Source of the DNA: an uncultured Nitrospina sp.
Lineage (GTDB): Bacteria; Nitrospinota; Nitrospinia; Nitrospinales; VA-1
Assembly (NCBI GenBank): GCA_964510965.1
Contig: CAZECX010000004.1
Span: 1 to 60,369, forward strand
Direction of reading: 5' to 3'
DNA length: 60,369 bases
A program made the position numbers and the translations under genes. A model generated the notes under the pieces. The model had not been told where the DNA came from. It saw nothing but the letters and a program-made list of their open reading frames with translations, and did not search any database. Below, piece after piece: positions 25,262 to 60,253 of the stretch (its first letter is position 1; the number at the start of each line of letters is the position of its first letter).

Positions 25262-26095
25262 TTGAATGGATTTTATGACGGCGAATTGGCAGGAATGAAT
25301 GTCTTGATTGTTGATGACACTCCGCAAAATATCGATGTGCTGGGTCACATAATGACCCGAGGCAATTTGAATCTTTCAGTTTCTCCGAGTGGAGAAAAAG
25401 CTCTTGAAGTCATTGGAAAAAACAAACCCGATTTGATCTTGTTGGATGTGATGATGCCCGGTATGGATGGCTATGAGGTTTGTGAAAAATTAAAACAGGA
25501 TGAGAGCACTAAAGATATCCCAATCATTTTTATAACAGCTCTTTCAGAAGTAGAAAATATCGTAAAAGCCTTCAAGGTTGGTGGAATAGATTATATAACC
25601 AAACCCTTTAAGGAAGAGGAAGTGATTTGCAGGACTGCCAGCCAGCTCAAATTGAAAAAAACTCTAGATGAACTGACTAAAAGTCAGAACGATTTAATTC
25701 AAAGTGAGAAATTACACCGGTCGATAGTTGAAAAAGTGCCTGAACTTATTTTCCAATTGGATCACAATCGAAACTTCACTTTTGCCAACAATGCTTTTTT
25801 CGGATTGGGTTATGAATCTGAAGAGTTGATAGGAAAGCCTCTGGAAGAATTGATCGCATCTGAAAATAAAGAACAACTCATTGAAGAAATTGCAACCCGT
25901 TTTGTAGGCCCTCTTGCCCCCACAGACATTGATGTTGAATTGAAAGTAAATTCGGAATCTTCCATGTATGAAATAATGCAAACATCAAAGGCTCTTGTTA
26001 GCTCGGTTGGAATCTGGAATGTGCCGGATGAAGAAGTTTTTAAAAAGGAAACCGATAAAGAATTCCTGGGAACCCTTTGCATCGGGAAGCTCTGA
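25262..26095 (+). CDS. REC-PAS response regulator without a recognisable output domain
   Basis: TTG start; VLIVDDTPQN/PDLILLDVMMPG REC, then PAS (IVEKVPELIFQLD...FANNAF...GYESEELIGK). Confidence 0.85.
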   Translation: MNGFYDGELAGMNVLIVDDTPQNIDVLGHIMTRGNLNLSVSPSGEKALEVIGKNKPDLILLDVMMPGMDGYEVCEKLKQDESTKDIPIIFITALSEVENIVKAFKVGGIDYITKPFKEEEVICRTASQLKLKKTLDELTKSQNDLIQSEKLHRSIVEKVPELIFQLDHNRNFTFANNAFFGLGYESEELIGKPLEELIASENKEQLIEEIATRFVGPLAPTDIDVELKVNSESSMYEIMQTSKALVSSVGIWNVPDEEVFKKETDKEFLGTLCIGKL

Positions 26096-26257
26096 TCAAA
26101 ATCTAGAGATGAGGCCCAGATAGGGTGCAGAGCTTTTTTTAGGGAAAGTGGTTTAATTTTTTAAAACTTCTTTCGACAAGTGGGGTGACAATTTTTAACG
26201 GGTGGGGCGAATATTTGCGATAACAGTTCCAATGGGTAGGAAGTTATTTTTGCCGGG

Positions 26258-26485
26258 TTATGCGGGTGGGTTGGTTTCGCTGTATTCGTTGAGTTTGTTG
26301 CGTAGGGTACGGATGCTGATTCCTAACGAGTCGGCAGCTTTTGTTTTGTTACCGCTGACCTCTTCGAGGGTCTGCATGATGAGTTCCTTTTCCATTTCAT
26401 AGATAGTTCCCGACAATCGCGGAGTTCCTTTTTCCTTGGAGTGCAATTCTTCATCGAAGAACAAATGCGATGGCAATAACGTATG
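26258..26485 (-). pseudogene. Duplicated 3' fragment (Fis-type HTH + stop) of the sigma54 response regulator at 41175-42551
   Basis: 228-bp alignment to 41175-41402 with 14 mismatches (8 synonymous, 6 non-synonymous). An unrelated 19-codon leader opens ORF 26258-26545 but has no RBS. Confidence 0.9.
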
Positions 26486-40807: not shown

Positions 40808-41174
40808 GATTCCATCTCTCCCCTGGTTCCTTTGTCGGACTGTTGGAAATTTAAAACTTGAGAATAATTTTGCCTCAAGATTTTTTGAATATCCCTTTTA
40901 CAAAAGCTCATTTGTTTTGCTTTGAAAATTTTGGTGGTCTTTTTTTTTCACAATTTACTTCAGGCTCAGACACATCTATAAATTATACCTTCATTGGCGG
41001 GGCAATGATTATTATCAAACGTTCCAAACTAAACGCAATTGTTTCTTCACTTGGAAAGCAAGTCCTTTGAACATTTATGTGTTTAAGAGTCACAGGGTAA
41101 ATATTTTCTGAGACTGAGAGCAGTTTTCTCCAATAACCTTTATCAGCAATCTCCTTAATGTGGTATGAGGGGGG

Positions 41175-41402
41175 TTAAGCAGGAGGGCTAGTTTCGCCGT
41201 ATTCGTTGAGTTTGTTACGTAGGGTGCGGATGCTGATTCCTAACGAGTCGGCAGCTTTTGTTTTGTTGCCGTTGACCTCTTCGAGGGTCTGCATGATGAG
41301 TTCCTTTTCCATTTCATAGATAGTTCCCGACAATCGCGGAGCCCCTTTTTCCTTGGAGTGCAATTCTTCATCGAAGAACAAATGCGATGGCAATATCGTA
41401 TC
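41175..41402 (-). repeat. Second copy of the 228-bp direct repeat (intact gene end)
   Basis: ~94% identical to 26258-26485, same orientation. Confidence 0.95.
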
Positions 41403-42551
41403 GTCCTGACACATCAGGCAGGATCGCTCAACAATATTCCCAAGTTCACGAATATTTCCCGGCCAACGATATTTTTTGAGCAGGGTTAGGGTTGCTGAAT
41501 CTATCTTTAAGGGAGATTTGTTATTTTCCTGACAAAACTGATGGATAAAATTATCTACGAGAACGGGAATATCATCGATTCTTTCTCTTAAAGGAATGAG
41601 GTTAATTGGAACTACGTTCAATCTGTAATAAAGGTCTTCACGAAACTGCTGATCCTGAATACGTTTTCGAATATCGCGGTTGCTGGTAGCGATGACTCGG
41701 ACATCTACCGGGATGGGCATTCGGCCGCCAATTTTATCGATTTCATGTTCCTGCAAAACGCGCAGTAGTTTGGCCTGCAATGGTAAGGACATTTCTGTTA
41801 CTTCATCAAGAAGCAATGAGCTGTTGTTTGCCATTTCAAACTTTCCTTCTTTGTTTTCAGTTGCACCGGTGAAGGAACCTTTTTCATGGCCGAACAGTTC
41901 TGATTCGAGCAAACCTTCTGGCAAGGCGGCACAGTTTACCGCCATGAAAGGTTTTTCTGAACGTGGACTGCATTGATGGATATAACGTGCGAACAGTTCT
42001 TTTCCCGTTCCAGTTTCACCCATGATGAGAACGGTTGACTTGCTGTATGAAACATTTTCGGCAAATTGCAGGAGCTTTTTCATTTCCTCATTCTGTGTAA
42101 CGATTCTTTTCATCTCTCCCAAAGTTTCCATTTGCGGGGAGGGACGAGGAACAGGAGGGGTGAAGCTGCCAGGGTCTAAAAATGCACGTTTTACTGTTGA
42201 AACCAGTACGTCTGCAGAAAAACCCGAACCTTTTATTAAATAGTCAAAGGCTCCTTCTTTCATTGCCTCAACAGCATTGTCTATTGTTCCATAGGCCGTC
42301 ATCATCACGACTTGAGTTTCGGGAGATTTTTCTTTTACTGCGCGCAACAATTCCAGTCCATTTATTTTTGGCATGCGAACATCGGTGAGAACGAGATCGA
42401 AATCATCGTCTTCCATTTTTTCTAATGCCCGTTTTCCATCCTCGGCACAGGTGAGCTGAAATCTTTCCCTTTTTAATGTGGTCTCTAATGCCACACGCAT
42501 TTCGGATTCGTCATCAACGATCAGAATTTTTTTAGATTCATTATTTTTCAT
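41175..42551 (-). CDS. Sigma54-dependent response regulator (REC-AAA-HTH), FleR/FlgR-like
   Basis: ILIVDDE, LTDVRMP, GETGTGKE, ESELFGHEKGSFTGA, FREDLYYRLNV, WPGNIREL, Fis-type HTH; start overlaps the kinase stop. Confidence 0.93.
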   Translation of the reverse strand: MKNNESKKILIVDDESEMRVALETTLKRERFQLTCAEDGKRALEKMEDDDFDLVLTDVRMPKINGLELLRAVKEKSPETQVVMMTAYGTIDNAVEAMKEGAFDYLIKGSGFSADVLVSTVKRAFLDPGSFTPPVPRPSPQMETLGEMKRIVTQNEEMKKLLQFAENVSYSKSTVLIMGETGTGKELFARYIHQCSPRSEKPFMAVNCAALPEGLLESELFGHEKGSFTGATENKEGKFEMANNSSLLLDEVTEMSLPLQAKLLRVLQEHEIDKIGGRMPIPVDVRVIATSNRDIRKRIQDQQFREDLYYRLNVVPINLIPLRERIDDIPVLVDNFIHQFCQENNKSPLKIDSATLTLLKKYRWPGNIRELGNIVERSCLMCQDDTILPSHLFFDEELHSKEKGAPRLSGTIYEMEKELIMQTLEEVNGNKTKAADSLGISIRTLRNKLNEYGETSPPA

Positions 42552-43812
42552 CGAAATCCTCATCCCAACATGGGATTTTTACTGTGAACGAAGTGCCTTT
42601 TCCCTCTTCACTGAATGCGTCTATCGTGCCTTGATGGGCCTTTATGATGTTGTGGGAAATCGCCAAACCGAGTCCGGTTCCTTTATCTTTCGTGGTGAAA
42701 AAGGGATTAAAAATTTTCGCAAGATTATCCGATGACATGCCAATGCCACTATCGGCTACTGTTACGGAAATATATTGACGTGTTGCAGAACCATTTTCCG
42801 AGCTTGAAGAAACAGAAGATTTTTCTGTGATGAGGCTCAACTCTCCACCGTCGGGCATAGCCTGGATCGCGTTATTGATAAGATTAGGGAATACCTGGCG
42901 CAATAGTTCCCGATCGCCATTAGCCAGCAAAGTTCCCTGACTGGATTTGCGTGTCACATTAACATTTTCTGGGACATGAACATTATTGATTCCCTCCAGA
43001 CATTCGGTGAGCAATAGGTTGATATCACATTGTTGGCGCGACGGCTGCGCGGATTTTGCGAATAATAGCAGGGTCGAAATGATGCGATCCATATTTTGCA
43101 CTCCGGATCGGATATGCTGAACCAGATTTTCTTTTTCAGTGTCTCCTTCAAGATCTTTTTTTAGAAGGGAGGCAAACAATTCGATGCTGCCTAAAGGATT
43201 CCTGATTTCATGTGCGATGCCTGCTGCCATTTCCCCCATCTCTCGCAGCCTTTGATTACGCTGTGCAAGTTCCTCCATCTTTCGGAACTCGGTCATATCT
43301 TGCAGGATTAAAATAGTGCCAATCTGACCTCCGTGGTTATCCCAAACGGGGGAGGCAGAGACCCGGACATGTAAAGTTCCTCCTTTTTCGTTGGGGATAT
43401 CTTTGTCCTGACTGATGGTTTCGCCGCGATTTTTCCCCAGTTTGGCGACAACGGGTTCAAATAATGGAAACACTTCTTTTAAAGTATTTCCCAGGCAGCT
43501 TTGTGGTTTGATCCCGGTTAGAGTCCCGGCAGTTTTATTATAAGTAGTAATGATTCCTGCGCGATCAACGACGATGACGCCATTGGTCTGGCTTTCGAGA
43601 ATATCGTTAAGATAATTTTTTACTCGCTCTTTCTCTGCCAGGTTTTTTTCCAGTTCTTCATTTTTATCGGATAGTTCAAGGTCAAGTTTTTTAACTCTAC
43701 CCTGAAGTTCATCGTAGGAATTTTGTAGCTGTGCGGTGACTTCGTTAAAAGCCTCCATATTCTGGATGAGGGTCTGGATTTCTTTACTTTTTTTACCGCC
43801 TGGGTTTGTCAT
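42541..43812 (-). CDS. Cytoplasmic coiled-coil-PAS histidine kinase, FleS/FlgS-like
   Basis: No TM; PAS ([13 protein letters not shown]), [40 protein letters not shown]. Confidence 0.92.
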
Positions 43813-52169: not shown

Positions 52170-54314
52170 ATGAAAAACTTAAAACAAATATTTATTATTT
52201 TGGTTATTGCCGGTTGTCTGGGCGCATTTTTTTATCTGGATCTGGGTCAATACCTATCCCTTAAGTATATAAAAGAACAGCAAGCCAATTTTTCTGAGTT
52301 TTATAAAGAAAATACTTTATTGGCGATTGGCGCCTACATGGCAGTTTATATTGTGTCGACGGCACTTTCCCTACCCGGTGCGGCACTTCTTACTTTACTG
52401 GGTGGCGCTTTATTTGGGTTGCTGGTTGGAACGATTCTGGTTTCTTTTGCCAGTAGCATTGGTGCCACACTTGCCTTTCTTGTTTCACGTTTGTTGTTAC
52501 GCGATTGGGTTCAAGATAAATTTGGCAGTCATTTAAAATCTTTTAATGAGGGAGTGCAAAAAGATGGCGGTTTTTATCTTTTCACACTCCGTTTAATCCC
52601 TGCTGTTCCATTTTTTGTTATTAATTTGGTTATGGGGCTGACTCCCATGAAGGCCACAACCTTTTATGGGGTAAGCCAGTTAGGCATGCTGGCAGGGACC
52701 GTTGTGTTTGTGAATGCGGGAACTCAACTCGCACAATTGGATTCTTTAAGTGGCATTCTTTCTCCAGAAATTATTTTTTCATTTGTTCTATTGGGAATTT
52801 TCCCATTGCTGGCCCGAAAACTTTTAAGCTTCTACAAAGGAAGAAGGGTTCTGAGTAAATTTAAAAAACCAAAAACATTCGACTACAACATGGTAGTCAT
52901 TGGTGCGGGATCGGCTGGATTGGTTACAAGCTACATAGGGGCCGCGACAAAAGGAAAAGTTGCGTTGATAGAGAAGCATAAAATGGGAGGAGACTGTTTG
53001 AATACGGGCTGCGTTCCCAGTAAAGCTTTAATTCGTTCAGCAAAATTCATGGCCGATGTAAAAAAATGCCAGAAGTTGGGTTTTAAAAGTGCGCATGTCG
53101 ATTTTGATTTTGCAGAGGTGATGGAACGAGTCCAACGCGTTATTAGAACGGTTGAGCCGCATGACTCAATAGAACGATACACTTCTCTGGGGGTAGAATG
53201 TCACACGGGTGAAGCAAAAATAATTTCTCCCTATGAAGTATCTGTGAATGGAAAAGTTCTCACCACCCGGAATATTGTTGTAGGCACCGGAGCACGGCCA
53301 TCTATTCCTCCCATTGAAGGGATTGAAAATGTTCCATTCCTGACTTCCGATACTATTTGGAATATCCGCGAGCAACCAAAAAAAATGCTTGTGCTGGGGG
53401 GCGGGCCCATTGGTTCTGAGCTGACCCAGGCTTTTGCTCGACTGGGATGCAACGTTACCCAGGTTCAGCGTAATAAACGGTTGATACCTAAAGAAGACCC
53501 GGAAATATCACAAATGGTTTTAGAAAGTTTCCAAAACGATGGGATCAATGTTTTGGTAGGGCATACACCGAAAAAATTCTTTAAGCGCGATGGCAAAGAT
53601 TTTTTGGAATGTGAAAGTAATGGGAACTCCGTTGAAGTCGAGTTCGATACCCTGCTGATCGCTTTGGGCAGGAAAGCCAACACCACTGGGTTCGGATTGG
53701 AAGAGTTGGGAGTGGAATTAACACCACAAAAAACGATCAAAGTAGATGAATATATGAAAACCAATATTCCCAATATTTATGCGTGTGGAGATGTTGCCGG
53801 TCCCTATCAGTTTACTCATACCGCTGCTCACCAAGCCTGGTACTGTGCTGTGAACTCTATGCTAAGTCCTTTTTACGGATTCAAAGTCGATTACAGCACC
53901 GTGCCCTGGTCAACTTTTACTGATCCTGAAGTGGCGCGTTCGGGCTTGAATGAGCTGGAAGCTAAAGCGCAGGGCATTCCCTATGAAGTCACCACTTATG
54001 GAATCGATGATCTGGATCGAGCCATTGCGGATGAGGCTGCGCATGGGATTGTTAAGGTATTGACGGTGCCTGGAAAAGATAAAATTATTGGTGTGACCAT
54101 TGCAGGGTTGCACGCAGGCGATATCATTTCAGAATATGTTGCGGCGATGAAAAACGGGTTCGGCATGAACAAAATTTTGGGCACGATTCATATCTATCCC
54201 ACTTTGGCTGAAGCAAATAAATATGCAGCGGGAAATTGGAAGAAAAATAATGTCACCGAAAAAGCTCTGGTTTGGGGGGAGAGAATCAATCGTTGGAGGC
54301 GAGACTATGTTTAA
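52170..54314 (+). CDS. TVP38/VTT (DedA-like) domain fused to a pyridine nucleotide-disulfide oxidoreductase
   Basis: ALSLPGA...LRLIPAVPFFVIN VTT domain; IGAGSAG, GGDCLNTGCVPSK, GGGPIGSE, YACGDV, YPTLAE. Confidence 0.92.
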   Translation: MKNLKQIFIILVIAGCLGAFFYLDLGQYLSLKYIKEQQANFSEFYKENTLLAIGAYMAVYIVSTALSLPGAALLTLLGGALFGLLVGTILVSFASSIGATLAFLVSRLLLRDWVQDKFGSHLKSFNEGVQKDGGFYLFTLRLIPAVPFFVINLVMGLTPMKATTFYGVSQLGMLAGTVVFVNAGTQLAQLDSLSGILSPEIIFSFVLLGIFPLLARKLLSFYKGRRVLSKFKKPKTFDYNMVVIGAGSAGLVTSYIGAATKGKVALIEKHKMGGDCLNTGCVPSKALIRSAKFMADVKKCQKLGFKSAHVDFDFAEVMERVQRVIRTVEPHDSIERYTSLGVECHTGEAKIISPYEVSVNGKVLTTRNIVVGTGARPSIPPIEGIENVPFLTSDTIWNIREQPKKMLVLGGGPIGSELTQAFARLGCNVTQVQRNKRLIPKEDPEISQMVLESFQNDGINVLVGHTPKKFFKRDGKDFLECESNGNSVEVEFDTLLIALGRKANTTGFGLEELGVELTPQKTIKVDEYMKTNIPNIYACGDVAGPYQFTHTAAHQAWYCAVNSMLSPFYGFKVDYSTVPWSTFTDPEVARSGLNELEAKAQGIPYEVTTYGIDDLDRAIADEAAHGIVKVLTVPGKDKIIGVTIAGLHAGDIISEYVAAMKNGFGMNKILGTIHIYPTLAEANKYAAGNWKKNNVTEKALVWGERINRWRRDYV

Positions 54315-55158
54315 AAGGTTGATTTCCACCTTTACTTTTTCTGTTAGTTTTTTTTTATTTGGAATTGCTGGTTCTGAAGAGATAAGGCAGAAACCGGTAT
54401 TAGATGAAAAATTAATTAATGCGATCCTTGATTCAAAACAAACAGGAATGGCTTTAATTCCCAGCGGTCAATTCACGAGAGGCTCAGCCCCCAAACATGC
54501 ACAAAAGGTTTGTCTTAAGAACAATGATTATTGTAAAGAAAAATGGTTCAAAGATGAAGAACCCCTCCACTCAGTCAAGTTAAACAGCTACTACCTTGAC
54601 ATCTATGAAGTGACTCAAAAAGATTTTCAACGGGTCATGAATAAGAACCCATCTGATTTTAAAGGCTCAGATTTGCCCGTGGAGAGAGTTACCTGGTATG
54701 AAGCCGTGGAATATTGCAAGAAAGTAGGGAAACGACTTCCTACAGAAGCGGAATGGGAATGGGGTGCCAAAGGAGGAAAGCATTGGACCTTCATCTGGGG
54801 CAACAAAGCAGAATCCCATAAAGCTAACTTTTGTGATAGAAGTTGCGAAAAGCGATGGAAAGAAAAACAGTTTGAAGACGGTTATTCTCACACCGCCCCT
54901 GTGGGTAGTTTCCCTCCTAATGATTATGGTTTGTATGATATGGCCGGTAACGTATATGAATGGGTTATGGATTGGTATGAAGACGATTATTATGCCCACT
55001 CTCCCGCTGAAAATCCCAAAGGCCCGGAAAATGGCAGTCGCAAAGTGATGCGCGGTGGGTCCTGGATCAATTACTCTGTAGGTGTACGACCCTCTGACCG
55101 GACAGAAGCGAAGCCCTCCAAAAGAATAAACTTCGTAGGTTTTCGGTGCGCCCGCTAA
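54307..55158 (+). CDS. Exported FGE-sulfatase (SUMF1) domain protein without the catalytic cysteines
   Basis: Signal peptide; DEEPLH, YEVTQ, RLPTEAEWE, GLYDMAGNVYEW, RGGSW, GFRCAR; ATG overlaps the upstream stop. Confidence 0.88.
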   Translation: MFKRLISTFTFSVSFFLFGIAGSEEIRQKPVLDEKLINAILDSKQTGMALIPSGQFTRGSAPKHAQKVCLKNNDYCKEKWFKDEEPLHSVKLNSYYLDIYEVTQKDFQRVMNKNPSDFKGSDLPVERVTWYEAVEYCKKVGKRLPTEAEWEWGAKGGKHWTFIWGNKAESHKANFCDRSCEKRWKEKQFEDGYSHTAPVGSFPPNDYGLYDMAGNVYEWVMDWYEDDYYAHSPAENPKGPENGSRKVMRGGSWINYSVGVRPSDRTEAKPSKRINFVGFRCAR

Positions 55159-55356
55159 TACCCCTGCGGGGCATGAATTCTATGGAAGGGATATAACACG
55201 TGGGAGGAAATATTAACCAACCTATTGTTAAAGGCTTCACGATGTCTCTGCTTGTTGGGTATGGTCTTATTGCTACCGGCGGCTCGCCGGGGGGGTTGCA
55301 AAGGGGGTGGGGGGAGTTTAAAATTGCTGAGATTTTAAACTTGAGGAAAAAGCCAG

Positions 55357-55956
55357 ATGAAGGTTTCCATCAATGGAGCGCAGCAACAAGAGTCCGATTT
55401 TAATGGCGAAACTTTAGGGGATATTCTCGACTCTATAGTTAAGCAAACACCTGGGTCCTATATCAGGCGCATATGGCTGGATGAAAAAGAATCCTCTGCT
55501 GATGACCCGAATGCTCTGCAAAAAATCCCCTCTGATATTCAATCTCTTGAAGTCGAACTGGCAAATTTGAAAGATCTGGTAGCGACCAATCTTGCAAATG
55601 CGCTGGACTATTTGCAAAAGCTCATCCCTGGTTTTGAAAACGCGGCAGATTTGTTTCGAACCGGAAATGAGCAAGAAGCCAATAAATATTATCTTCAAAT
55701 TTTGGATGGGATTGAGTGGTTTTCCCAGGTCGTAAATATAATTATGAAGCCTGACGAAGGGGAGGTGGTGTTGCCCGGGGCTGAAAATGAAAATTTGCAA
55801 GCTCGGCAGGAAAAGCTTACGGATTTGATGAGCCAAATGTTGGAAGCAAATCAGAATCAGGATTGGGTGCTTTTGGCTGATGTGCTGGAATATGAAATGG
55901 TACCTTTTTATAAAGATTGGGAAAAAATTCTCTCCAAATTAGAAAATCCGCATTAA
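55357..55956 (+). CDS. Conserved hypothetical protein of flagellar/motility-accessory loci
   Basis: Ubiquitin-like N-terminus (MKVSING) plus helical C-domain ending DWVLLADVLEYEMVP, a motif I recall from proteins near flagellar glycosylation genes; not verified. Confidence 0.6.
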   Translation: MKVSINGAQQQESDFNGETLGDILDSIVKQTPGSYIRRIWLDEKESSADDPNALQKIPSDIQSLEVELANLKDLVATNLANALDYLQKLIPGFENAADLFRTGNEQEANKYYLQILDGIEWFSQVVNIIMKPDEGEVVLPGAENENLQARQEKLTDLMSQMLEANQNQDWVLLADVLEYEMVPFYKDWEKILSKLENPH

Positions 55957-56091
55957 TTATTTCCTCCTTCTATTTTAATTTTATTCACATAACTATCTGA
56001 ATAACAATCTATTATTTATTTTCCGGGCGGGGTTTTAATTGCAATAGCTAGTGAATATAGATATTTTTTAAAAAAAGTCCTAAATTAGCGC

Positions 56092-56118
56092 TAAAGTTTG
56101 GTTGGGTTTTGCCGATAA
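56092..56118 (+). promoter_or_regulatory. Sigma28 (FliA) promoter
   Basis: TAAA(GTTT)-N15-GCCGATAA, an exact consensus. Confidence 0.8.
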
Positions 56119-56234
56119 GCAAAGCGAAGGACTATCGTCTTCTCTGGGGTAAAGGTAATTATGGAGGAGAGAAATTTACAGGCGTTTATTTTTGGGTAGT
56201 TTTTTTCAAGAAGGATACTTGATACCTGATTATC

Positions 56235-56261
56235 TTATCGGTCAAGATTGCTAAAGCTTTA
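56235..56261 (-). promoter_or_regulatory. Second sigma28-like promoter, facing the first
   Basis: Minus strand TAAA(GCTT)-N15-ACCGATAA. Confidence 0.55.
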
Positions 56262-56366
56262 CCAGGCAATTGATTTTTTTTTGGATAAGAGTTTCAGGTA
56301 TCGGGAGGCAGCCCCAGGGACCGGGTACCAAAACCTATATAAGAAATTGTATGGAAGGGGGATGCT

Positions 56367-57344
56367 ATGGCAGAAGAAGTTGGAAATTTTCCCTTGGACC
56401 AGGGGAATAGAGGTGCATTAAGAGGCTTGGAAGAGTCTCGGGAAGAAGCTGGGCGACCTCGCCGTCTTGATGACGCAGAAGAAGAAGTTAGAGACCCAAG
56501 ACGCGCCCAGGAGTCTGCGGCAGAAGAAGAAAGAGATGTGGCTCGGCCGGAGAGAATAGAAGACCGGGTCGAACTTACTCAGGAGGCCCTGGATCAAAAT
56601 CAGGCAGCGGAAGAAACCCAAACCCAGGAAACTCAACGAAATAAATTAGCGGAACAGGACTTTGCGCAAGAGGAAGCTCAGGCACAATCTGTTGTTGAGC
56701 AACGGTCTGAATCCCAAGATGCTATTCAGAGTAACCGAAGAGAGGCTCCGCCTGCAAATACAGGCGATGCAGCCATATCCCCCGGACAGGGCGGGTCAGA
56801 TCCTGAAGAGGCCCTCAATGAAGGTTTTCAACTGGGTAATACCCAAACGAACCCCAACCGTATTCAAGAATTTGCCTCACGGAATCAGATAGACAATCCC
56901 GAGGAAGCCGCTGCAGCCACCAACGATTTGGCAGCGGACCAAGCCTCTCAAGCTAGAGCCGCGCGAGAGGAAAGCACTGAGGTTGCGGATGCTCCTGAGC
57001 AGCAAAATGTTCAACTCCAGCAAAGAGTCGAAGAAGATAATGCAGAGATTCGGGGAACTGAAGAGGTAGAGGTTCAGGAGAACAGTCTCTCTGAAACAGG
57101 GGCAAATGTACCTGAGACAAGAGCAGATCAAAGGGCTGAAGATGCGCGACAAGCAGCCCGCAATGAACCGCCTTTGGAAATTCCTGGATCAGATGTGGAA
57201 CAAATTGAGGAGGCTCCTGATCCCTTGCGGGAAGCTCAGGATAACAATCCGCTACGCGCGCCAGGGCCTTCTGCAATCAGGGATGAGCCGGATGCTACGG
57301 CAATAGAAACAGAACGTGGACAGAATGTCAGCAACTTAATTTAA
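56367..57344 (+). CDS. Acidic, low-complexity, probably disordered hypothetical protein
   Basis: Strong RBS (GGAAGGGGG), 325 aa rich in E/Q/A/D/R/N with almost no aromatic residues; EDRVELTQEA motif and C-terminal ETERGQNVSNLI. Confidence 0.78.
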   Translation: MAEEVGNFPLDQGNRGALRGLEESREEAGRPRRLDDAEEEVRDPRRAQESAAEEERDVARPERIEDRVELTQEALDQNQAAEETQTQETQRNKLAEQDFAQEEAQAQSVVEQRSESQDAIQSNRREAPPANTGDAAISPGQGGSDPEEALNEGFQLGNTQTNPNRIQEFASRNQIDNPEEAAAATNDLAADQASQARAAREESTEVADAPEQQNVQLQQRVEEDNAEIRGTEEVEVQENSLSETGANVPETRADQRAEDARQAARNEPPLEIPGSDVEQIEEAPDPLREAQDNNPLRAPGPSAIRDEPDATAIETERGQNVSNLI

Positions 57345-57355
57345 ACAACGAACCG

Positions 57356-57608
57356 CGCCCGCCAGCGGCATGCTGTGGGCCTTATTGTACAACTCATCAA
57401 GAGGAGATACGCCAGAACCGGAACACCCCATCGCTTAGAAGAGGATCTCGATTAATATTGGAATGGTTTGCGGCCTTGCCCAATATTAAACGAAGGTTCA
57501 GATTTTGACTTAAGGCCCGTCAGGGGCACCTGTCACACCGGCGTGGTCTGTCGCCTTTCGGCGGAAGTCCGTCATCGGTGTGTAAGCACGCAACTGGCGA
57601 GGCGGGCG
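57356..57608. ncRNA. Candidate structured non-coding element of unknown class (~253 nt)
   Basis: Nested complementary stems: CGCCCGCC/GGCGGGCG, GGGCCTTA/TAAGGCCC, TTAATATTGG/CCAATATTAA, CAGG/CCTG, CACACCGG/TCGGTGTG, CGCC-TTTC-GGCG; followed by T8. Confidence 0.55.
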
Positions 57609-57649
57609 TTTTTTTTCGGTAAATCTGTGCGATTCCGATCTTGATGTGT

Positions 57650-57677
57650 TTATCGACATTTTCGAATAAACACTTTA
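57650..57677 (-). promoter_or_regulatory. Possible sigma28 promoter pointing into the structured element
   Basis: Minus strand TAAA(GTGT)-N16-GTCGATAA; overlaps a GTGTTTAT/ATAAACAC inverted repeat. Confidence 0.35.
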
Positions 57678-57716
57678 TAGGCGAATCAGGTTTTTTGTCG
57701 CCAGACCGGAAAAAAC

Positions 57717-59546
57717 GTGCAGGTTCTCAATAATACCAGTCCAACCTTTTTCCCTTTCGACTCCAGCCGGACCAGCACCAATCCCACGGTTAACAGAGCC
57801 AGAAATACTATCAACCAAACTGAGGAAGATTCCTCAAATATCAGTCAATCCCTTTTTGACGAAATTTTTGTAAATAAAAGGAAAGTACCTCAATTGCAGG
57901 CCACTGGGCCTTTGGCAACATTGAGGACGGCGGATGCCATTTCACTTCTCACCCAGCGTTTCCAGTCTCAAAAAATACCTGTCATCGATGATCTGGATAA
58001 AAAAGAGTCCTTTGTTTTTGCCAGGCTGCGTCAATTGGATGACCTTTCGGATTCGCTAAAAGATTTAGAAGAAACGGTTGCAAATTTACTTTCGGCAAAT
58101 GGTCTCAATCCAAAATCAGCCTCTTCCTCTCGTTTCAGGGAAATTCTCGCTGCGGTGGGGAAAAATGCACCCTTGGATAGTATTGAGGTGAGAGCGGTTC
58201 AATTAGCCAAAACCGCTGAATTAGCTTCCGATGTGTTTGACCCTTCAACCAGACTCAATCTGAGCGGTAGTTTTTCTATCAATGGAGTCGAGGTCACAGT
58301 TGTTGCAAGCGATACCCTGGTAACTCTTAGAAATAAAATTAATTTTGGAGAAGACGTTAACCGAAACGGCGCGCTGGACCTTACAGAAGATGTTAATAAC
58401 AACGGAACTCTTGAAATTTTGCAGGTCGCAAATTCAGAATTCGGTAGTGGCGTTTTTATCAAAGAGGATGTCAATGACAATGGAGAAATAGACGCCAGCG
58501 AAGATACTAATGCAAACGATAGGCTCGATGGGGGGATCTCTGACAACAATGTTCTTGCATTGCTCAGGGACAACCGACTGGTGCTGGTCAGCCTCGCAGG
58601 AGGTAGCAACACGATTGACTTAAAAGACGACGATCACGTTCTTTTTGAATTGGGCTTTTTTGAATTAGATAGCAGGGGAGAGAAAGCTCAAAAAGAGATC
58701 CAACTAAACGATATAGCAAGACCGGATAACCTTGTTGTCCAACCCCAACAGGCAATCGCTGAGGTGGATGGAGAATTTTTCAGCAGCGATTCAAATGTTT
58801 TATCCGGCGTTATTGAAGATACTGCTCTGCTGTTGAAGCAAACTTCAGATACTTCTTCCAAGATCACCATCTTTATCGATGCCCCTACCTTTTTTGCCCA
58901 GATCAAAACCCTGTTCAGTCAATTCAATGATTCCATTTCCAAGGTCAATGACCTCCTAAACGGCAGTAGCACCTTTGAAAGTGATGGAGATATCCAGGAT
59001 ATTCGTAATGACCTGACCACCGAACCTCAAAAAAGAGCCCGGATTTTGGAGGAAAGGAATCGGATTATTGATGATTTTCGCGGTCGACCGGGGAACCCAC
59101 AGGCAACAGGTATTTCAGTAGCAAGTACAGAAAAGCAGACTCAGCAGGAAGTCGCGGTCACTTCCATTGTCCAGGCCATCCAAAGAGGGCTGACCTTTCC
59201 TTCACAAAACGGGGATGAAAACTTATTAAAAAGATTGAGCTCCATTGGAATTCGAACTTTGACTGACAACACCTTTGCTCTCGATGAAGCCGAATTCACT
59301 CGAGGACTGGAAAAAAATACTCAGGAGGTATTCGACTTGTTTACCAACACTGAAACGGGAATTCTTCCGGTGCTAGCTCAACAACTGGAAGATATTGTCC
59401 GAGACGATCGCGGTGACCTGGCCCTCAAGCAAAATAAAGTTGTTGTTCAATCGGGTGCTCCCAATGTTCTAGCGCAGAATTTTCGAAAATTTACTGAAAA
59501 CTCCAATCTGGAGGCAACGGTTCAAACCTTAATCGCGGTGGCATAA
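57717..59546 (+). CDS. fliD: Flagellar filament cap FliD-like protein with inserted Ca-binding-like repeats
   Basis: GTG start; IEVRAVQLAKT, LSGSFSING, QQAIAEVDG, QFNDSISKVN, LSSIGIRT...LDEAEF...EVFDLF FliD-C pattern. Confidence 0.8.
   Translation: MQVLNNTSPTFFPFDSSRTSTNPTVNRARNTINQTEEDSSNISQSLFDEIFVNKRKVPQLQATGPLATLRTADAISLLTQRFQSQKIPVIDDLDKKESFVFARLRQLDDLSDSLKDLEETVANLLSANGLNPKSASSSRFREILAAVGKNAPLDSIEVRAVQLAKTAELASDVFDPSTRLNLSGSFSINGVEVTVVASDTLVTLRNKINFGEDVNRNGALDLTEDVNNNGTLEILQVANSEFGSGVFIKEDVNDNGEIDASEDTNANDRLDGGISDNNVLALLRDNRLVLVSLAGGSNTIDLKDDDHVLFELGFFELDSRGEKAQKEIQLNDIARPDNLVVQPQQAIAEVDGEFFSSDSNVLSGVIEDTALLLKQTSDTSSKITIFIDAPTFFAQIKTLFSQFNDSISKVNDLLNGSSTFESDGDIQDIRNDLTTEPQKRARILEERNRIIDDFRGRPGNPQATGISVASTEKQTQQEVAVTSIVQAIQRGLTFPSQNGDENLLKRLSSIGIRTLTDNTFALDEAEFTRGLEKNTQEVFDLFTNTETGILPVLAQQLEDIVRDDRGDLALKQNKVVVQSGAPNVLAQNFRKFTENSNLEATVQTLIAVA
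58350..58530 (+). repeat. Four EDxNxNGxLD-type peptide repeats inside FliD
   Basis: EDVNRNGALD, EDVNNNGTLE, EDVNDNGEID, EDTNANDRLD in two pairs. Confidence 0.85.
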
Positions 59547-59548
59547 AA

Positions 59549-59977
59549 ATGCATGAGCAGAAAATAAAACAAAGTCTTGAAAATAAAATAACCCTTTTAG
59601 CTGAGCTTGCAGGGCAAATGAATCAGCAGATAAAAGCTATTGATGAAAACGATGAACCGTCTCTTGTTCGGATTCTCGATGCAAAGGAAAAGGTGATCGA
59701 GTCGCTGGTCAATGATGACAAGGAGTTGGATAAGCAGGTGGCTCTTCTTGATGAGAAAAACCGGGTGGCGATTGCAAAGAATCTCAAAGAGCTAGGGGTT
59801 CAGATCGAAATAGAAACAGAAAAAATTATTGAAATGGAAAACGATTGCGAGAAAAAGTTGATCAATGAAAAGCTGGAGCTTTTCGAAAAAATGAAGTCGC
59901 TGAAAAATGGGCGCACTTTATTAAAAGGATATGGAATGTCTACAAGAGTTAAACCAAAAATCAAAGGAAGTATATAG
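59549..59977 (+). CDS. FlgN/FliT-like flagellar export chaperone
   Basis: 142 aa all-helical, C-terminal LLKGY motif typical of FlgN; directly after fliD. Confidence 0.6.
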   Translation: MHEQKIKQSLENKITLLAELAGQMNQQIKAIDENDEPSLVRILDAKEKVIESLVNDDKELDKQVALLDEKNRVAIAKNLKELGVQIEIETEKIIEMENDCEKKLINEKLELFEKMKSLKNGRTLLKGYGMSTRVKPKIKGSI

Positions 59978-59992
59978 CGGAGGGAAAGGATT

Positions 59993-60253
59993 ATGGATTT
60001 TTCAATTGTACCTGTAAGTAAAGTTTTTAAAACTTATCAGGGGCAGGCACGAATTGCAGACTTGAATAAGAAAAGTTCGTTAAAAAGAGTGCAGGGGCAA
60101 GTGGATCAAGTTACCATTTCCAGCGCTGCCCGGCAGGCTTTACAGAGAAACCCCAATGGAGATAGACCTCAAGTAGCTGCTAAAGTGGCACCGGCTGCAG
60201 AAGCCAGCAAACCAGCCCCGACAACGACGAATGAGTTTGTCCCCGGCATATAA
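59993..60253 (+). CDS. Small FlgM-associated (DVU0524-like) protein
   Basis: VSKVFKTYQGQ and VDQVTISSAA motifs; AGGA RBS; position in a late flagellar operon. Family recalled, not searched. Confidence 0.5.
   Translation: MDFSIVPVSKVFKTYQGQARIADLNKKSSLKRVQGQVDQVTISSAARQALQRNPNGDRPQVAAKVAPAAEASKPAPTTTNEFVPGI

Follow-up and report, generated by a model that had tools for sequence, protein, structure and literature searches.

The window, a 60,369-nt stretch of DNA from an uncultured Nitrospina sp., carries a flagellar locus in which an acidic open reading frame (ORF) is followed by a structured intergenic element and by fliD (Table 1). The acidic ORF had no match in Pfam or NCBIfam. It is conserved in position, and a C-terminal GQNVxNLI-like motif was found even in distant relatives. 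The element is located 100-370 nt upstream of fliD and is followed by a T-run. An earlier note on this DNA had described the segment as GC-rich and listed a set of pairings within it. The GC content is indeed raised, only modestly so, being ~0.50-0.53 compared to roughly 0.40-0.47 in the part of the profiled region towards fliD. The pairings were all present in the DNA: a closing pair followed by T8, an arm 1, a 10-bp stem, a CAGG/CCTG hairpin and an arm 2 with CGCC-TTTC-GGCG. Two of them were modified by the comparison between homologues. The closing helix exists, in a register different from the 8-bp one listed, which is unable to form in the second clade. For arm 1 the sequences are there, and a competing local hairpin (P3') has slightly better support.

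Table 1. Features of the interval between the acidic ORF promoter and the minus-strand promoter. Positions are those of the window; paired segments are joined by "with".
Feature	Position	Strand	Sequence or remark
Sigma-28 consensus-type promoter	56092..56118	+	TAAAGTTT-N11-GCCGATAA; upstream of acidic ORF, convergent
Acidic ORF, 325 aa	56367..57344	+	stop codon abuts element in all clades
Structured core	57347..57610	-	closed by P1, extended by P1d
P1, whole	57610-57594 with 57365-57347	-	covariation-supported register
P1 outer	57610-07 with 57350-47	-	AACG/CGUU
P1 middle	57605-03 with 57355-53	-	CCG/CGG
P1 inner	57601-594 with 57365-58	-	CUCGCCAG/CUGGCGGG
P1d	57591-87 with 57372-68	-	GCGUG/CAUGC; extends P1
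Closing pair, first listed register	57356-63 with 57601-08		CGCCCGCC/GGCGGGCG
P2, long irregular hairpin	57534..57582	-	predicted in 36 of 36 sequences despite sequence turnover
Arm 2 (= P2)	57534-41 with 57575-82		CACACCGG/TCGGTGTG; CGCC-TTTC-GGCG at 57552-63
CAGG/CCTG hairpin	57521-32		
P3', local hairpin	57513..57531	-	AGG..CCC-loop-GGG-CCU; competes with arm 1
Arm 1	57377-84 with 57511-18		GGGCCTTA/TAAGGCCC
P4, ~14-bp helix	57447..57494	-	10-bp stem extended; 7 of 14 pairs changed on both sides
10-bp stem	57452-61 with 57480-89		TTAATATTGG/CCAATATTAA
P4 loop	57462-57479	-	near-invariant core GGCCGCAAACCAU
Second CU-rich motif	57438..57450	-	CGAGAUCCUCUUC; between P4 and P5, nearly invariant
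P5, small hairpin	57416..57432	-	GAU-GGG...UCC-GUU; tentative
P6, hairpin	57391..57413	-	loop UCCUCUU (57405->57399), invariant in 36 sequences
T8 tract	57609..57616	+	directly after closing stem
Predicted 5' leader	57611..57643	-	short variable hairpin, then A-rich single-stranded run
Predicted transcription start	about 57641-57643	-	
Sigma-28 (FliA)-type promoter	57650..57677	-	TAAAGTGT (57677->57670)-N12-GTCGATAA (57657->57650)

The element was found to be confined to marine nitrite-oxidising Nitrospinaceae. When 185,579 species genomes were scanned for its pattern, it was found in Nitrospinota only; we estimate that pattern hits outside this phylum can be accounted for by chance, the pattern being short and degenerate. 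It was present at the same site in 27 of 32 Nitrospinota fliD loci, and diverged copies were also recognized by eye in L026 and L027. Every close Nitrospinaceae fliD locus keeps the element, with compensatory base changes. There is one copy per genome, invariably flanked by the conserved acidic ORF and fliD. The core was 87-96% identical between homologues, compared to 72-80% for the flanking coding DNA, and is the best-conserved DNA of the locus.

Metagenome assemblies tend to break at this place, and seven of the 32 genome contigs begin inside the element or at its edge, because the sequence is near-identical between co-occurring strains. The contig ends were also tried as a proxy for transcript ends and were found scattered and uninformative.

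The 271-nt segment folded better than shuffled controls on both strands, a comparison that the earlier note had suggested together with searches for known families, covariation and further copies. The folding energy was -105.3 kcal/mol on the plus strand (z -3.0; 1 of 200 shuffles equally good) and -107.6 kcal/mol on the minus strand (z -5.2; 0 of 200). For the analysis of covariation we used 36 non-redundant homologues. Two-sided changes were found at 23 pairs against 13.1 ± 1.8 in shuffles, with none of 500 shuffles reaching the observed number, although many of these covariations go back to few evolutionary events since the homologues fall into two main clades. A variant of the structure repeated the result (23-24 compensatory pairs overall), and in slid controls the paired fraction was at most 46%. 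L026 and L027 were misaligned at P4 and P6 in the MAFFT alignment, and these helices were compared by eye instead.

Rfam 15, with its families for tmRNA, RNase P, SRP, 6S, riboswitches, HEARO/omega-RNA types and known sRNAs, gave no match at gathering score, neither in the whole window nor in five homologous loci. In E-value mode the matches of 57100-57900 and of L027 3560-4010 were at chance level (E 0.85-7, 12-17 bits against thresholds of 38-100). No tRNA or tmRNA was found by ARAGORN, and a literature search gave no publication on regulatory or non-coding RNA in Nitrospina. To judge from these searches, the element matches no described RNA family. Protein-coding and other identities were also considered. 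Small ORFs of 58 aa on the plus strand and 49 aa on the minus strand are broken by 1-2-nt indels among the homologues, and the beginning of the latter lies upstream of the predicted transcription start. A guide RNA of the TnpB/IscB/TldR type was rejected, as the flanking ORFs scanned (54223-60250) lacked such domains. Judged by sequence comparison, the segment flagged beside fliD is a genuine, strongly conserved, folded non-coding RNA element. The suggestion of a novel ncRNA in the earlier note is supported by the lack of an Rfam match, the strong conservation and the covarying pairs.

The curated structure consists of a long closing helix (P1, extended by P1d) around a series of smaller helices, described here as they are read on the minus strand. 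P1 was 100% paired in 35 sequences, with pair changes CG<->UA (14 and 14 sequences) and GC<->AU, and a change between U·G and U-A in the three sequences L131, L023 and L083. The inner 8 bp of P1 are retained in L026 and L027 with two to three G·U pairs each. In P2 five of the seven basal pairs were changed on both sides, the wobble count being strand-neutral, and the apical loop of the window's clade is GNRA on the minus strand (GAAA, GUAA or GGAA). The outer stem of P3' was 93.5% paired, one pair being AU in 16 and GC in 15 sequences; arm 1, with which it competes, was 85.8% paired with one covarying pair. Two-sided changes in P4 are exemplified by a pair that is AU in 21 and UA in 15 sequences, and in L027 the stem becomes GAAUUGG/CCAAUUC. 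The P4 loop is predicted to be largely open (mean P(unpaired) 0.71). P5 was 98.6% paired on the minus strand compared to 58.9% on the plus strand, through G·U pairs and one-sided changes; two-sided covariation in P5 was looked for among the 36 homologues and none was found.

P6 carries one of two CU-rich motifs. One pair of its stem passes from A-U (five sequences) through G·U (30 sequences) to G-C in L026 and L027, where the hairpin reads GUCU-CCUCUA-AGAC; on the plus strand the same pair is an A·C mismatch in most sequences. The loop UCCUCUU resembles an anti-Shine-Dalgarno sequence and has a predicted P(unpaired) of 0.67 against a mean of 0.38. The predicted accessibility of the second CU-rich motif is moderate (0.46). 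A UCCUC core is common to all clades. Outside P1, the leader hairpin showed some compensatory changes in the alignment (AACGG/CCGUU and AAUGG/CCAUU). The A-rich run that follows it, A8 in the window and equal to the plus-strand T8 at 57609-57616, has a mean predicted P(unpaired) of 0.83; an A/T-run is found here in all clades, with varying length and composition.

The asymmetry of wobble pairs in the alignment favours the minus strand. The same helices were 92.3% paired across the 36 sequences on the minus strand and 81.4% on the plus strand, with 368 G·U against 86 A·C cells, a mirror comparison that is in part biased because P5 and P6 were picked on the minus strand. On the minus strand the numbers of G·U and A·C cells were 69 and 0 for P1, 41 and 5 for P1d, and 53 and 16 for P4. 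All 69 wobble cells of P1 fit the minus strand only, and P1 therefore pairs on this strand and not on the plus strand, where it was 86.9% paired. In 32 of 35 sequences the plus strand has an A·C mismatch at one pair of the closing helix, and in other clades as many as three of 8 bp are mismatched there, while the minus strand has G·U or compensated pairs at these positions. Series of the type U·G<->U-A, A-U<->G·U<->G-C and C-G<->U·G<->U-A were seen in P1 and P6. Single 1x1 mismatches inside folds made of Watson-Crick pairs only were G·U in 51 and A·C in 25 cases, whereas wobbles at helix ends were equal in number (98 and 98).

Energies did not separate the strands. Single-sequence folding was better on the minus strand in just 20 of 36 sequences, P2 folded better on the plus strand in 29 of 36, and the RNAalifold energies were about equal for both. 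RNAalifold with G·U forbidden keeps perfect Watson-Crick pairs only and thus cannot distinguish between them. The plus-strand RNAalifold structure was rejected, since it depends on long-range pairing of invariant blocks, such as CATCAAGA/TCTTGATG, which show no covariation. An inverted repeat of 8 nt is, by our estimate, about what chance would give in 380 nt.

The minus-strand promoter, recognized by motif match, was invariant in all 36 homologues. Within the 60-kb window the motif TAAA-N15-16-GYCGATAW matched twice where 0.10 matches were expected, and none of 100 shuffles gave at least two. The two matches are the convergent sigma-28 motifs on either side of the acidic ORF, 1.6 kb apart, and there is no other in the 60 kb. 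Transcription from the minus-strand promoter is predicted, because of the typical sigma-28 spacing, to start at the position given in Table 1 and to run leftwards into the element. The spacer is also invariant and partly palindromic (57646-53/57666-73), so that the block may have another role. In the distant relatives L026 and L027 this position is occupied by TCAAGTG-N-GCCGATAA, the spacer being unrelated. L029 has a minus-strand GCCGATAA box beside fliD without the structured core; its -35 region is poor and it failed the motif scan. Both hints by which the minus strand had been suggested from the sequence of the window, a GAAA tetraloop and a sigma28-like box, held up on comparison, as a GNRA loop in the window's clade and as this invariant promoter. 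The sigma-28 promoter of the acidic ORF was kept, with a variable spacer, in seven of 14 relatives scanned (including L002, L003, L007, L009, L016 and L026).

On the plus strand, T8 is probably the intrinsic-terminator tail of the convergent acidic-gene transcript, and each of the four clades has a T-run after the stem. The stem is a long-range one, enclosing ~230 nt with its partners ~240 nt apart, and a terminator scan found no plus-strand site, that is no compact hairpin, before the T-run. On the minus strand P1 is followed by a weak U-rich tail only (UUCGUUGUUU), and L026 and L027 have none. The stretch from T8 to the start codon of fliD was inspected by eye and showed no convincing sigma-54 or sigma-70 promoter for this gene. 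The sequence TGGCATGGTTTGC inside the element was considered as a sigma-54 promoter and rejected, the GG-GC spacing being wrong.

The best predicted target lies within the window. A 12-bp duplex is predicted between the CGAGAUCCUCUUC motif and the start region (ribosome-binding site and start codon) of a response-regulator gene of the sigma-54 type at 42563. It has a ΔG of -24.4 kcal/mol and is of marginal significance (shuffle p about 0.02 with a single seed, about 0.04 with two). The site is conserved in relatives, but it overlaps a gene junction and its conservation is expected anyway.

We consider it slightly more likely than not that the element is the gene for a new sigma-28-driven structured sRNA of ~300 nt in Nitrospinaceae. 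From the above we infer its transcription, RNA ends, pairing mechanism and targets as follows. Sigma-28 RNA polymerase would initiate at ~57642 on the minus strand, divergent from fliD, and the transcript would consist of a short leader with an A-rich run and a ~265-nt multi-helix core (57610->57347) closed by the long G+C-rich helix P1. The folded RNA would bear two conserved anti-Shine-Dalgarno-like CU-rich motifs, UCCUCUU in a hairpin loop and GAUCCUCUUC in an inter-helix linker predicted to be moderately accessible. Most likely these would pair with ribosome-binding sites of target mRNAs and so add a late-stage post-transcriptional layer to flagellar control. On the plus strand, the closing helix and T8 would probably terminate the sigma-28-driven acidic-gene mRNA, and the convergent transcripts would be complementary across the element. 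A dual function is conceivable, though we hold it to be rather unlikely. In that case the minus-strand sigma-28 RNA of ~300 nt would act in feedback on the sigma-54-type regulator and/or on a protein via the P4 loop, the plus-strand terminator or attenuator would gate read-through from the acidic gene into fliD, and the two would regulate each other.

An explanation to which we give a smaller but appreciable chance is that the element acts in cis on the plus strand, as a 3' UTR or intercistronic fold of a sigma-28-dependent acidic gene-fliD operon in which the stem and T8 set the read-through. In a variant of it a protein such as CsrA might bind to the conserved (A)GGA motifs AAGAGGAG and AGAGGAUC. 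The acidic gene does have a consensus-type sigma-28 promoter on this strand, its stop codon adjoins the element and the T-run follows the stem in all clades, the G+C-rich stem GGCGGGCG stands directly before T8 (57601-57616), fliD has no plus-strand promoter that could be recognized by eye, P2 folds better on this strand, and the GGA-containing motifs, which are about 35 nt apart, are conserved. However, the closing helix is mismatched on the plus strand as described, the alternative 8-bp register is impossible in the second clade, and the T-run lacks a compact hairpin before it. Just two (A)GGA motifs are conserved across the clades, one of them partly in the stem of the plus-strand fold; a CsrA sponge of the CsrB/RsmZ type was rejected for this reason and because a search of the window and the fetched fliD loci gave no csrA-like ORF. 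The invariant minus-strand promoter is also left unexplained. An attenuator of fliD had been among the suggestions of the earlier note; the T-run after the stem agrees with it in all clades, whereas the pattern of pairing is better matched by the opposite strand. For a riboswitch or other leader of fliD the position and the T-run would be suitable, but the wobble pattern favours the other strand and no riboswitch family matched. That both strands are used and the minus-strand RNA acts mainly as a cis-antisense RNA on the acidic gene and fliD, by RNase III or transcriptional interference, seems to us unlikely. A simple antisense RNA needs neither a conserved multi-helix fold nor invariant loops. 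Such use would be in line with the two convergent sigma-28 motifs being unique in 60 kb, with constraint on each strand (G·U pairs on the minus, the T-run on the plus strand) and with the box by fliD in L029, which in the lack of a core suggests that the antisense promoter predates the fold, but its -35 region is poor and was missed by the motif scan.

We find it very unlikely that the conservation reflects protein-binding sites in DNA, such as operators or nucleoid- or replication-related sites. A 40-nt block (57640-57680) is invariant and partly palindromic, and there is the invariant 8-nt inverted repeat of CATCAAGA (57394-401) and TCTTGATG (57639-46), but compensatory changes up to 250 nt apart and strand-asymmetric wobbles are unexpected for duplex DNA sites. 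A non-autonomous, MITE-like mobile element between the two genes, also proposed from the sequence of the window, is the least plausible explanation and in our view extremely improbable. The ends of P1 do form an inverted repeat and metagenome contigs often break inside the element. Against this, a repeat search found one copy in the window, the genome scan found the element once per Nitrospinota genome with paired hits being overlapping contig ends, the syntenic site never varies, and the flanks (…AACAACGAACC/TTTTTTTTCGG…) carry no direct duplication.

The sRNA gene that we prefer can be compared with several known systems. Bidirectional intrinsic terminators are located between convergent genes and have a G+C-rich stem flanked by an A-tract and, on the opposite side, a T-tract. 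The candidate shares with them the stem with A- and T-tract flanks between convergent units, but its 'loop' is a ~230-nt covarying structured domain and its wobbles fit one strand only. OLE, ROOL, GOLLD and raiA are multi-helix RNAs with invariant loops that out-conserve their neighbours and were found by comparative analysis without a known function. These traits recur here, whereas the candidate is smaller, is limited to one family of one phylum, to one locus and to one alternative sigma factor, and none of the four matched it in Rfam.

The sigma-28 sRNAs of E. coli are short (roughly 100-260 nt) and simply structured. The sigma-28-dependent flagellar sRNAs described in E. coli are UhpU, MotR, FliX, and FlgO (Melamed et al., 2023; PMC10578931). 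The candidate resembles them in its sigma-28-type promoter and its place in a flagellar locus, beside fliD. The E. coli sRNAs are derived from mRNA UTRs and associated with Hfq, whereas the candidate is intergenic, apparently has its own promoter, and with ~300 nt and at least five helices under one long closing stem has no match in Rfam. In Campylobacter jejuni, CJnc170 (FlmR) is described as FliA-dependent and as fine-tuning the flagellar class hierarchy together with CJnc230 (FlmE), in part by repressing the mRNA of a regulator (König et al., 2024; PMC11187230). The target predicted here is likewise a regulator (sigma-54-type), although targets are predicted only, with p about 0.02-0.04; the C. 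jejuni pair belongs to a different phylum, and no Rfam family matches the candidate. FlaX of Vibrio cholerae is reported to be processed from the flaA 3' UTR, to associate with ProQ, and to block ribosome binding on a flagellar mRNA (PMC11879080). Under the plus-strand reading, the candidate too would derive from the 3' UTR of a late flagellar gene, but the strand evidence favours an independent gene in antisense orientation.

In the ocean, nitrite is considered to be oxidised mainly by Nitrospinota. The element is the most conserved stretch of the flagellar locus, shows clear compensatory pairing and has a flagellar-sigma promoter, and it would therefore be a first candidate riboregulator of the phylum and offer a concrete handle on the control of motility in Nitrospinota. 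In its size and its multi-helix fold, with a stem that may double as a terminator, the candidate exceeds the short UTR-derived sigma-28 sRNAs of E. coli and Campylobacter.

The segment between the acidic ORF and fliD was found to be a selected, folded, single-copy, lineage-specific and non-coding element with a flagellar-sigma promoter motif facing inward. Neither the acidic ORF nor the 199-aa ORF upstream of it had a Pfam or NCBIfam match. Both are also positioned upstream of fliD in L027, a distantly related fliD locus, and the position and C-terminal motif (…GQNVxNLI) of the acidic ORF were kept in all distant Nitrospinota examined. The acidic ORF sits where many flagellar loci have flaG. 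No family was found in the whole window with Rfam 15 at gathering score, Rfam in E-value mode gave chance-level matches only on the element region, and a tRNA/tmRNA scan of the window was negative.

Judged by its FliD relatives the window belongs to Nitrospinota; all but one of the 32 related loci were labelled Nitrospina, Nitrospinaceae or Nitrospinota MAGs. Of these 32 loci, 27 had the intergenic DNA (57340-57720) upstream of fliD. When 185,579 species genomes were scanned for a pattern of the element, it was seen only in Nitrospinota, and by our own estimate the matches elsewhere are consistent with chance for a short degenerate pattern. Two matches in one genome were overlapping contig ends. 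The mobile element considered in the earlier note was rejected, since there is one site per Nitrospinota genome and no further copy within the 60-kb window. Further copies came from scanning metagenomes for the invariant promoter block, which brought the total to 91 full-length instances (62 distinct); once eight unrelated chance matches had been excluded, 36 representatives at <98% identity made up the homologue set.

Within the clade of the window the core is 87-96% identical, compared to 72-80% for acidic ORF and fliD DNA. Relative to the second clade, full-length identity of the core is 73-75%, and the coding DNA, which aligned only in part, is 64-71% identical. Because this non-coding DNA is better conserved than the adjacent genes, the element must be under direct selection. 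Seven of the 32 fliD contigs have their start within the element or at its margin (L001, L004, L008, L012, L018, L020, and L021) and partner contigs L044, L065, and L067 terminate within it, overlapping by ~120 nt; these assembly breaks arise because the element is near-identical among co-occurring strains while the flanks differ.

Every stem listed in the earlier note within 57356-57608 was found. Compared to 200 dinucleotide shuffles, the 271-nt stretch 57350-57620 folded better than the controls on the plus strand (-105.3 kcal/mol, z = -3.0) and on the minus strand (-107.6 kcal/mol, z = -5.2). A curated structure of 73 pairs on alignment A3 (36 sequences, minus-strand orientation) had standard pairs in 92.3% of cells. 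Two-sided changes were observed in 23 of the 73 pairs compared to 13.1 ± 1.8 in column shuffles (0/500 as high), where the two main clades make pair-change counts exceed the number of independent evolutionary events. The covariation score was 0.162 against at most 0.063 with partners slid 1-3 columns, and such slid structures were merely 31-46% paired. The lack of an Rfam family, the strong conservation and the covarying pairs support the novel ncRNA proposed in the earlier note.

The closing helix P1, the base of P2 and P4 are the best-supported helices. The proposed closing stem exists, but its register CGCCCGCC/GGCGGGCG is unable to form in the second clade. Pair changes in P1 comprise CG to UA (14 and 14 sequences), GC to AU, and U·G to U-A (loci L131, L023, and L083). 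P2 (arm 2) was predicted as a hairpin in 36/36 sequences despite sequence turnover, with five of seven basal pairs changing on both sides. Its apical loop is GNRA on the minus strand in the clade of the window (GAAA, GUAA, GGAA), as the GAAA tetraloop of the earlier note had indicated, and this favours the minus strand. The 10-bp stem, P4, extends to about 14 bp, with two-sided changes at 7 pairs. Arm 1 (57377-84/57511-18) was 85.8% paired with one covarying pair, and the outer stem of a rival local hairpin was 93.5% paired, so that either may form at the junction.

The element was found between the same genes in L026 and L027 (Nitrospinaceae), where FliD is just 43% identical. For the inner part of P1 they have UUCGCCGG/CUGGCGGG and CUCGCCGG/CUGGCGGG, of which 2-3 pairs are G·U in the minus-strand RNA, and the extension P1d is contiguous (CGUCG/CGACG). 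The P4 stem is altered to GAAUUGG/CCAAUUC with a related loop (…AACCAU…), P6 is GUCU-CCUCUA-AGAC, and the T-run is present in both. The structured core was absent from L029 (Nitrospinales) and from L031 and L032 (deeper Nitrospinota). L029 (3700-3890), without the core, has a minus-strand GCCGATAA box ~50 nt upstream of its fliD and a T8/A8 run adjoining a GGCC…GGCC hairpin. Judging from this box, the antisense promoter may be older than the fold.

The strands were compared over identical helices: a G·U cell can pair only on the minus strand, and an A·C cell becomes G·U on the plus strand. In total 368 G·U and 86 A·C cells were found, i.e., 92.3% paired on the minus strand and 81.4% on the plus strand, part of the count being biased by the choice of P5 and P6 on the minus strand. 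P1 and P4 provide the fairest test because they are helices on both strands and independently backed by Watson-Crick covariation; G·U and A·C cells numbered 69 and 0 in P1 and 53 and 16 in P4. P1d had 41 and 5, and P2 and arm 1 were neutral. For one pair of P1, U·G is found in 32 sequences and U-A in 3, which on the plus strand would amount to a permanent A·C mismatch. One P6 stem pair is A-U in 5 sequences, G·U in 30, and G-C in L026/L027, which follows the usual route of RNA helix evolution, A-U to G·U to G-C; on the plus strand it is a mismatch in most taxa. Isolated 1x1 mismatches in Watson-Crick-only folds of each sequence were G·U in 51 cases vs A·C in 25. Helix-end wobble counts were equal between strands, RNAalifold energies were about equal, and single-sequence energies did not separate the strands, P2 being better on the plus strand in 29/36 sequences. 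We consider it likely that the minus strand is the one whose fold is under selection.

Features of the element, its flanks and the predicted target
Feature	Position	Strand	Description
Response regulator, sigma-54-type	42563..41175	-	REC, sigma-54-interaction, HTH domains; PAS histidine kinase precedes
199-aa ORF	55357-55956	+	upstream of acidic ORF
Consensus-type sigma-28 site	56092-56118	+	TAAAGTTTGGTTGGGTTTTGCCGATAA; ~250 nt upstream of acidic ORF start codon
Weaker sigma-28-like site	56235-56261	-	TAAAGCTTTAGCAATCTTGACCGATAA; faces 56092 promoter
Acidic ORF, 325 aa	56367-57344	+	stop codon adjoins element
P1 closing helix	57610-57594/57365-57347	-	15 pairs, 100% paired; AACG/CGUU + CCG/CGG + CUCGCCAG/CUGGCGGG, register backed by covariation
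Invariant 8-nt inverted repeat	57394-57401/57639-57646		CATCAAGA/TCTTGATG; P6 region to promoter-proximal block
Local hairpin rivalling arm 1	57513-57531		AU:16/GC:15 at one outer-stem pair
Imperfect palindrome	57646-53/57666-73		GTGTTTAT/ATAAACAC; overlaps -35 and -10 of minus-strand promoter
Putative sigma-28-type promoter	57677->57650	-	TAAAGTGT-N12-GTCGATAA; faces into element
Hairpin	57680-57702	+	GGCGA…TCGCC; just upstream of fliD ribosome-binding site
fliD	57717-59546	+	FliD_N and FliD_C domains

The sigma28-like box of the earlier note lies in a 40-nt block (57640-57680) that was invariant in 36/36 homologues, spacer included. The minus-strand reading of this block is close to the FliA (sigma-28) consensus, TAAAGTTT-N11-GCCGATAA, and by motif match it is a plausible putative promoter. 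The pattern TAAA-N15-16-GYCGATAW had 2 matches in the 60-kb window vs 0.10 expected (2 in 0/100 shuffles). The second match is the site upstream of the acidic ORF. Among 14 relatives scanned, 7 kept this site with a spacer that varies, and it thus behaves as a real promoter should; its distance from the start codon would mean that the 5' leader is long or that the start lies earlier. In L026/L027 the corresponding minus-strand position carries TCAAGTG-N-GCCGATAA, the spacer being of unrelated sequence, which argues for a promoter and not merely a piece of conserved block. The acidic gene and the element would hence be bracketed by two putative convergent sigma-28 promoters. The weaker site, located in the AT-rich 410 nt that separate the two ORFs, could form another convergent pair with the 56092 site or be due to chance.

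Both the imperfect palindrome and the invariance of the spacer point to an additional role of the block, perhaps as an operator or within the fliD leader (hairpin). In the hairpin preceding fliD, the two sides of the stem change together in the other clade, to GGCGTA…TACGCC, and AGACCGGAAAAAA-CGTG 3' of it is almost invariant. The 8-nt inverted repeat was paired by RNAalifold on the plus strand, its invariance making covariation impossible; by our own estimate one such repeat per 380 nt is the chance expectation.

From typical sigma-28 spacing, minus-strand transcription would start at ~57642 and give a short leader, an A-run and then P1, in an RNA of about 300 nt produced alongside late flagellar genes. 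Leaving aside the well-supported helices, conservation is highest in UCCUCUU (P6 loop, 57405-57399) and CGAGAUCCUCUUC (57450-57438), which resemble the anti-Shine-Dalgarno sequence and share the core UCCUC, kept in all clades. The P6 loop has a predicted accessibility of 0.67 vs a mean of 0.38. In the simplest mechanism the RNA would pair with ribosome-binding sites of target mRNAs. Among 103 start regions within the window, the top predicted target was the response regulator, whose Shine-Dalgarno sequence and start codon would form a 12-bp duplex (-24.4 kcal/mol) with the CGAGAUCCUCUUC motif; 2% of seed shuffles did as well, or ~4% once both seeds are taken into account. The site was conserved in 7/8 closest relatives, one genome having two uncompensated mismatches, and it overlaps the kinase stop and regulator start codons, which are conserved in any case. 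We regard this predicted target as a lead. A second copy of the 3' end of the regulator gene lies downstream of a REC-PAS gene (25262-26095, plus strand), the two forming a 230-nt direct repeat with 94% identity (26255-26484 and 41172-41401). Another repeat, two tandem 63-nt units 98% identical (23676-23801), is located within a 921-aa ORF (22468-25233).

On the plus strand the stem is followed by a T-run in all clades and would plausibly terminate the acidic-gene mRNA, the stem acting like a bidirectional terminator whose loop holds a functional RNA domain. The minus-strand 3' tail is only weakly U-rich (UUCGUUGUUU) and missing in L026 and L027, so that the predicted 3' end is tentative.

The same T-run speaks for the attenuator for fliD proposed in the earlier note. 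Such an attenuator, or a 3' UTR element, on the plus strand also agrees with the abutting acidic-ORF stop codon, the sigma-28 promoter upstream of that ORF and the fact that no promoter for fliD could be recognised. However, the P1 wobble pattern fits the other strand, a terminator scan gave no compact hairpin, and the minus-strand promoter is left unexplained, and we find this reading possible but doubtful. Its CsrA-binding form is weak, as conserved GGA motifs number two only and csrA was not found in the window or the fliD loci. A cis-antisense pair with both strands functional matches the convergent promoters, but seems rather improbable to us. An element acting only as DNA is unlikely given the long-range compensatory changes.

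We favor a minus-strand RNA: comparative support for this structured RNA candidate, which is confined to one lineage, is good, and its sigma-28 promoter is plausible. The element is genuine and, judging by the tools and libraries used, has not been described before. Nitrospinota are environmentally important; the literature searched held no relevant paper on Nitrospina and ncRNA, and no riboregulator for the phylum. The closest kind is the sigma-28-dependent flagellar sRNAs, i.e., UhpU, MotR, FliX, and FlgO of E. coli (PMC10578931) and CJnc170 of C. jejuni (PMC11187230); FlaX of V. cholerae, a flagellin 3' UTR sRNA (PMC11879080), is close as well. The candidate is like these RNAs in promoter class, genomic setting and proposed mode of action, and it had no match among Rfam models. 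It differs from them in being apparently a free-standing gene, in having a predicted length of about 300 nt with at least five helices within one closing stem, and in that it would lie antisense to the end of a convergent sigma-28 transcript. The candidate is no new kind of biology, but a flagellar RNA that is unusually well conserved and elaborate.
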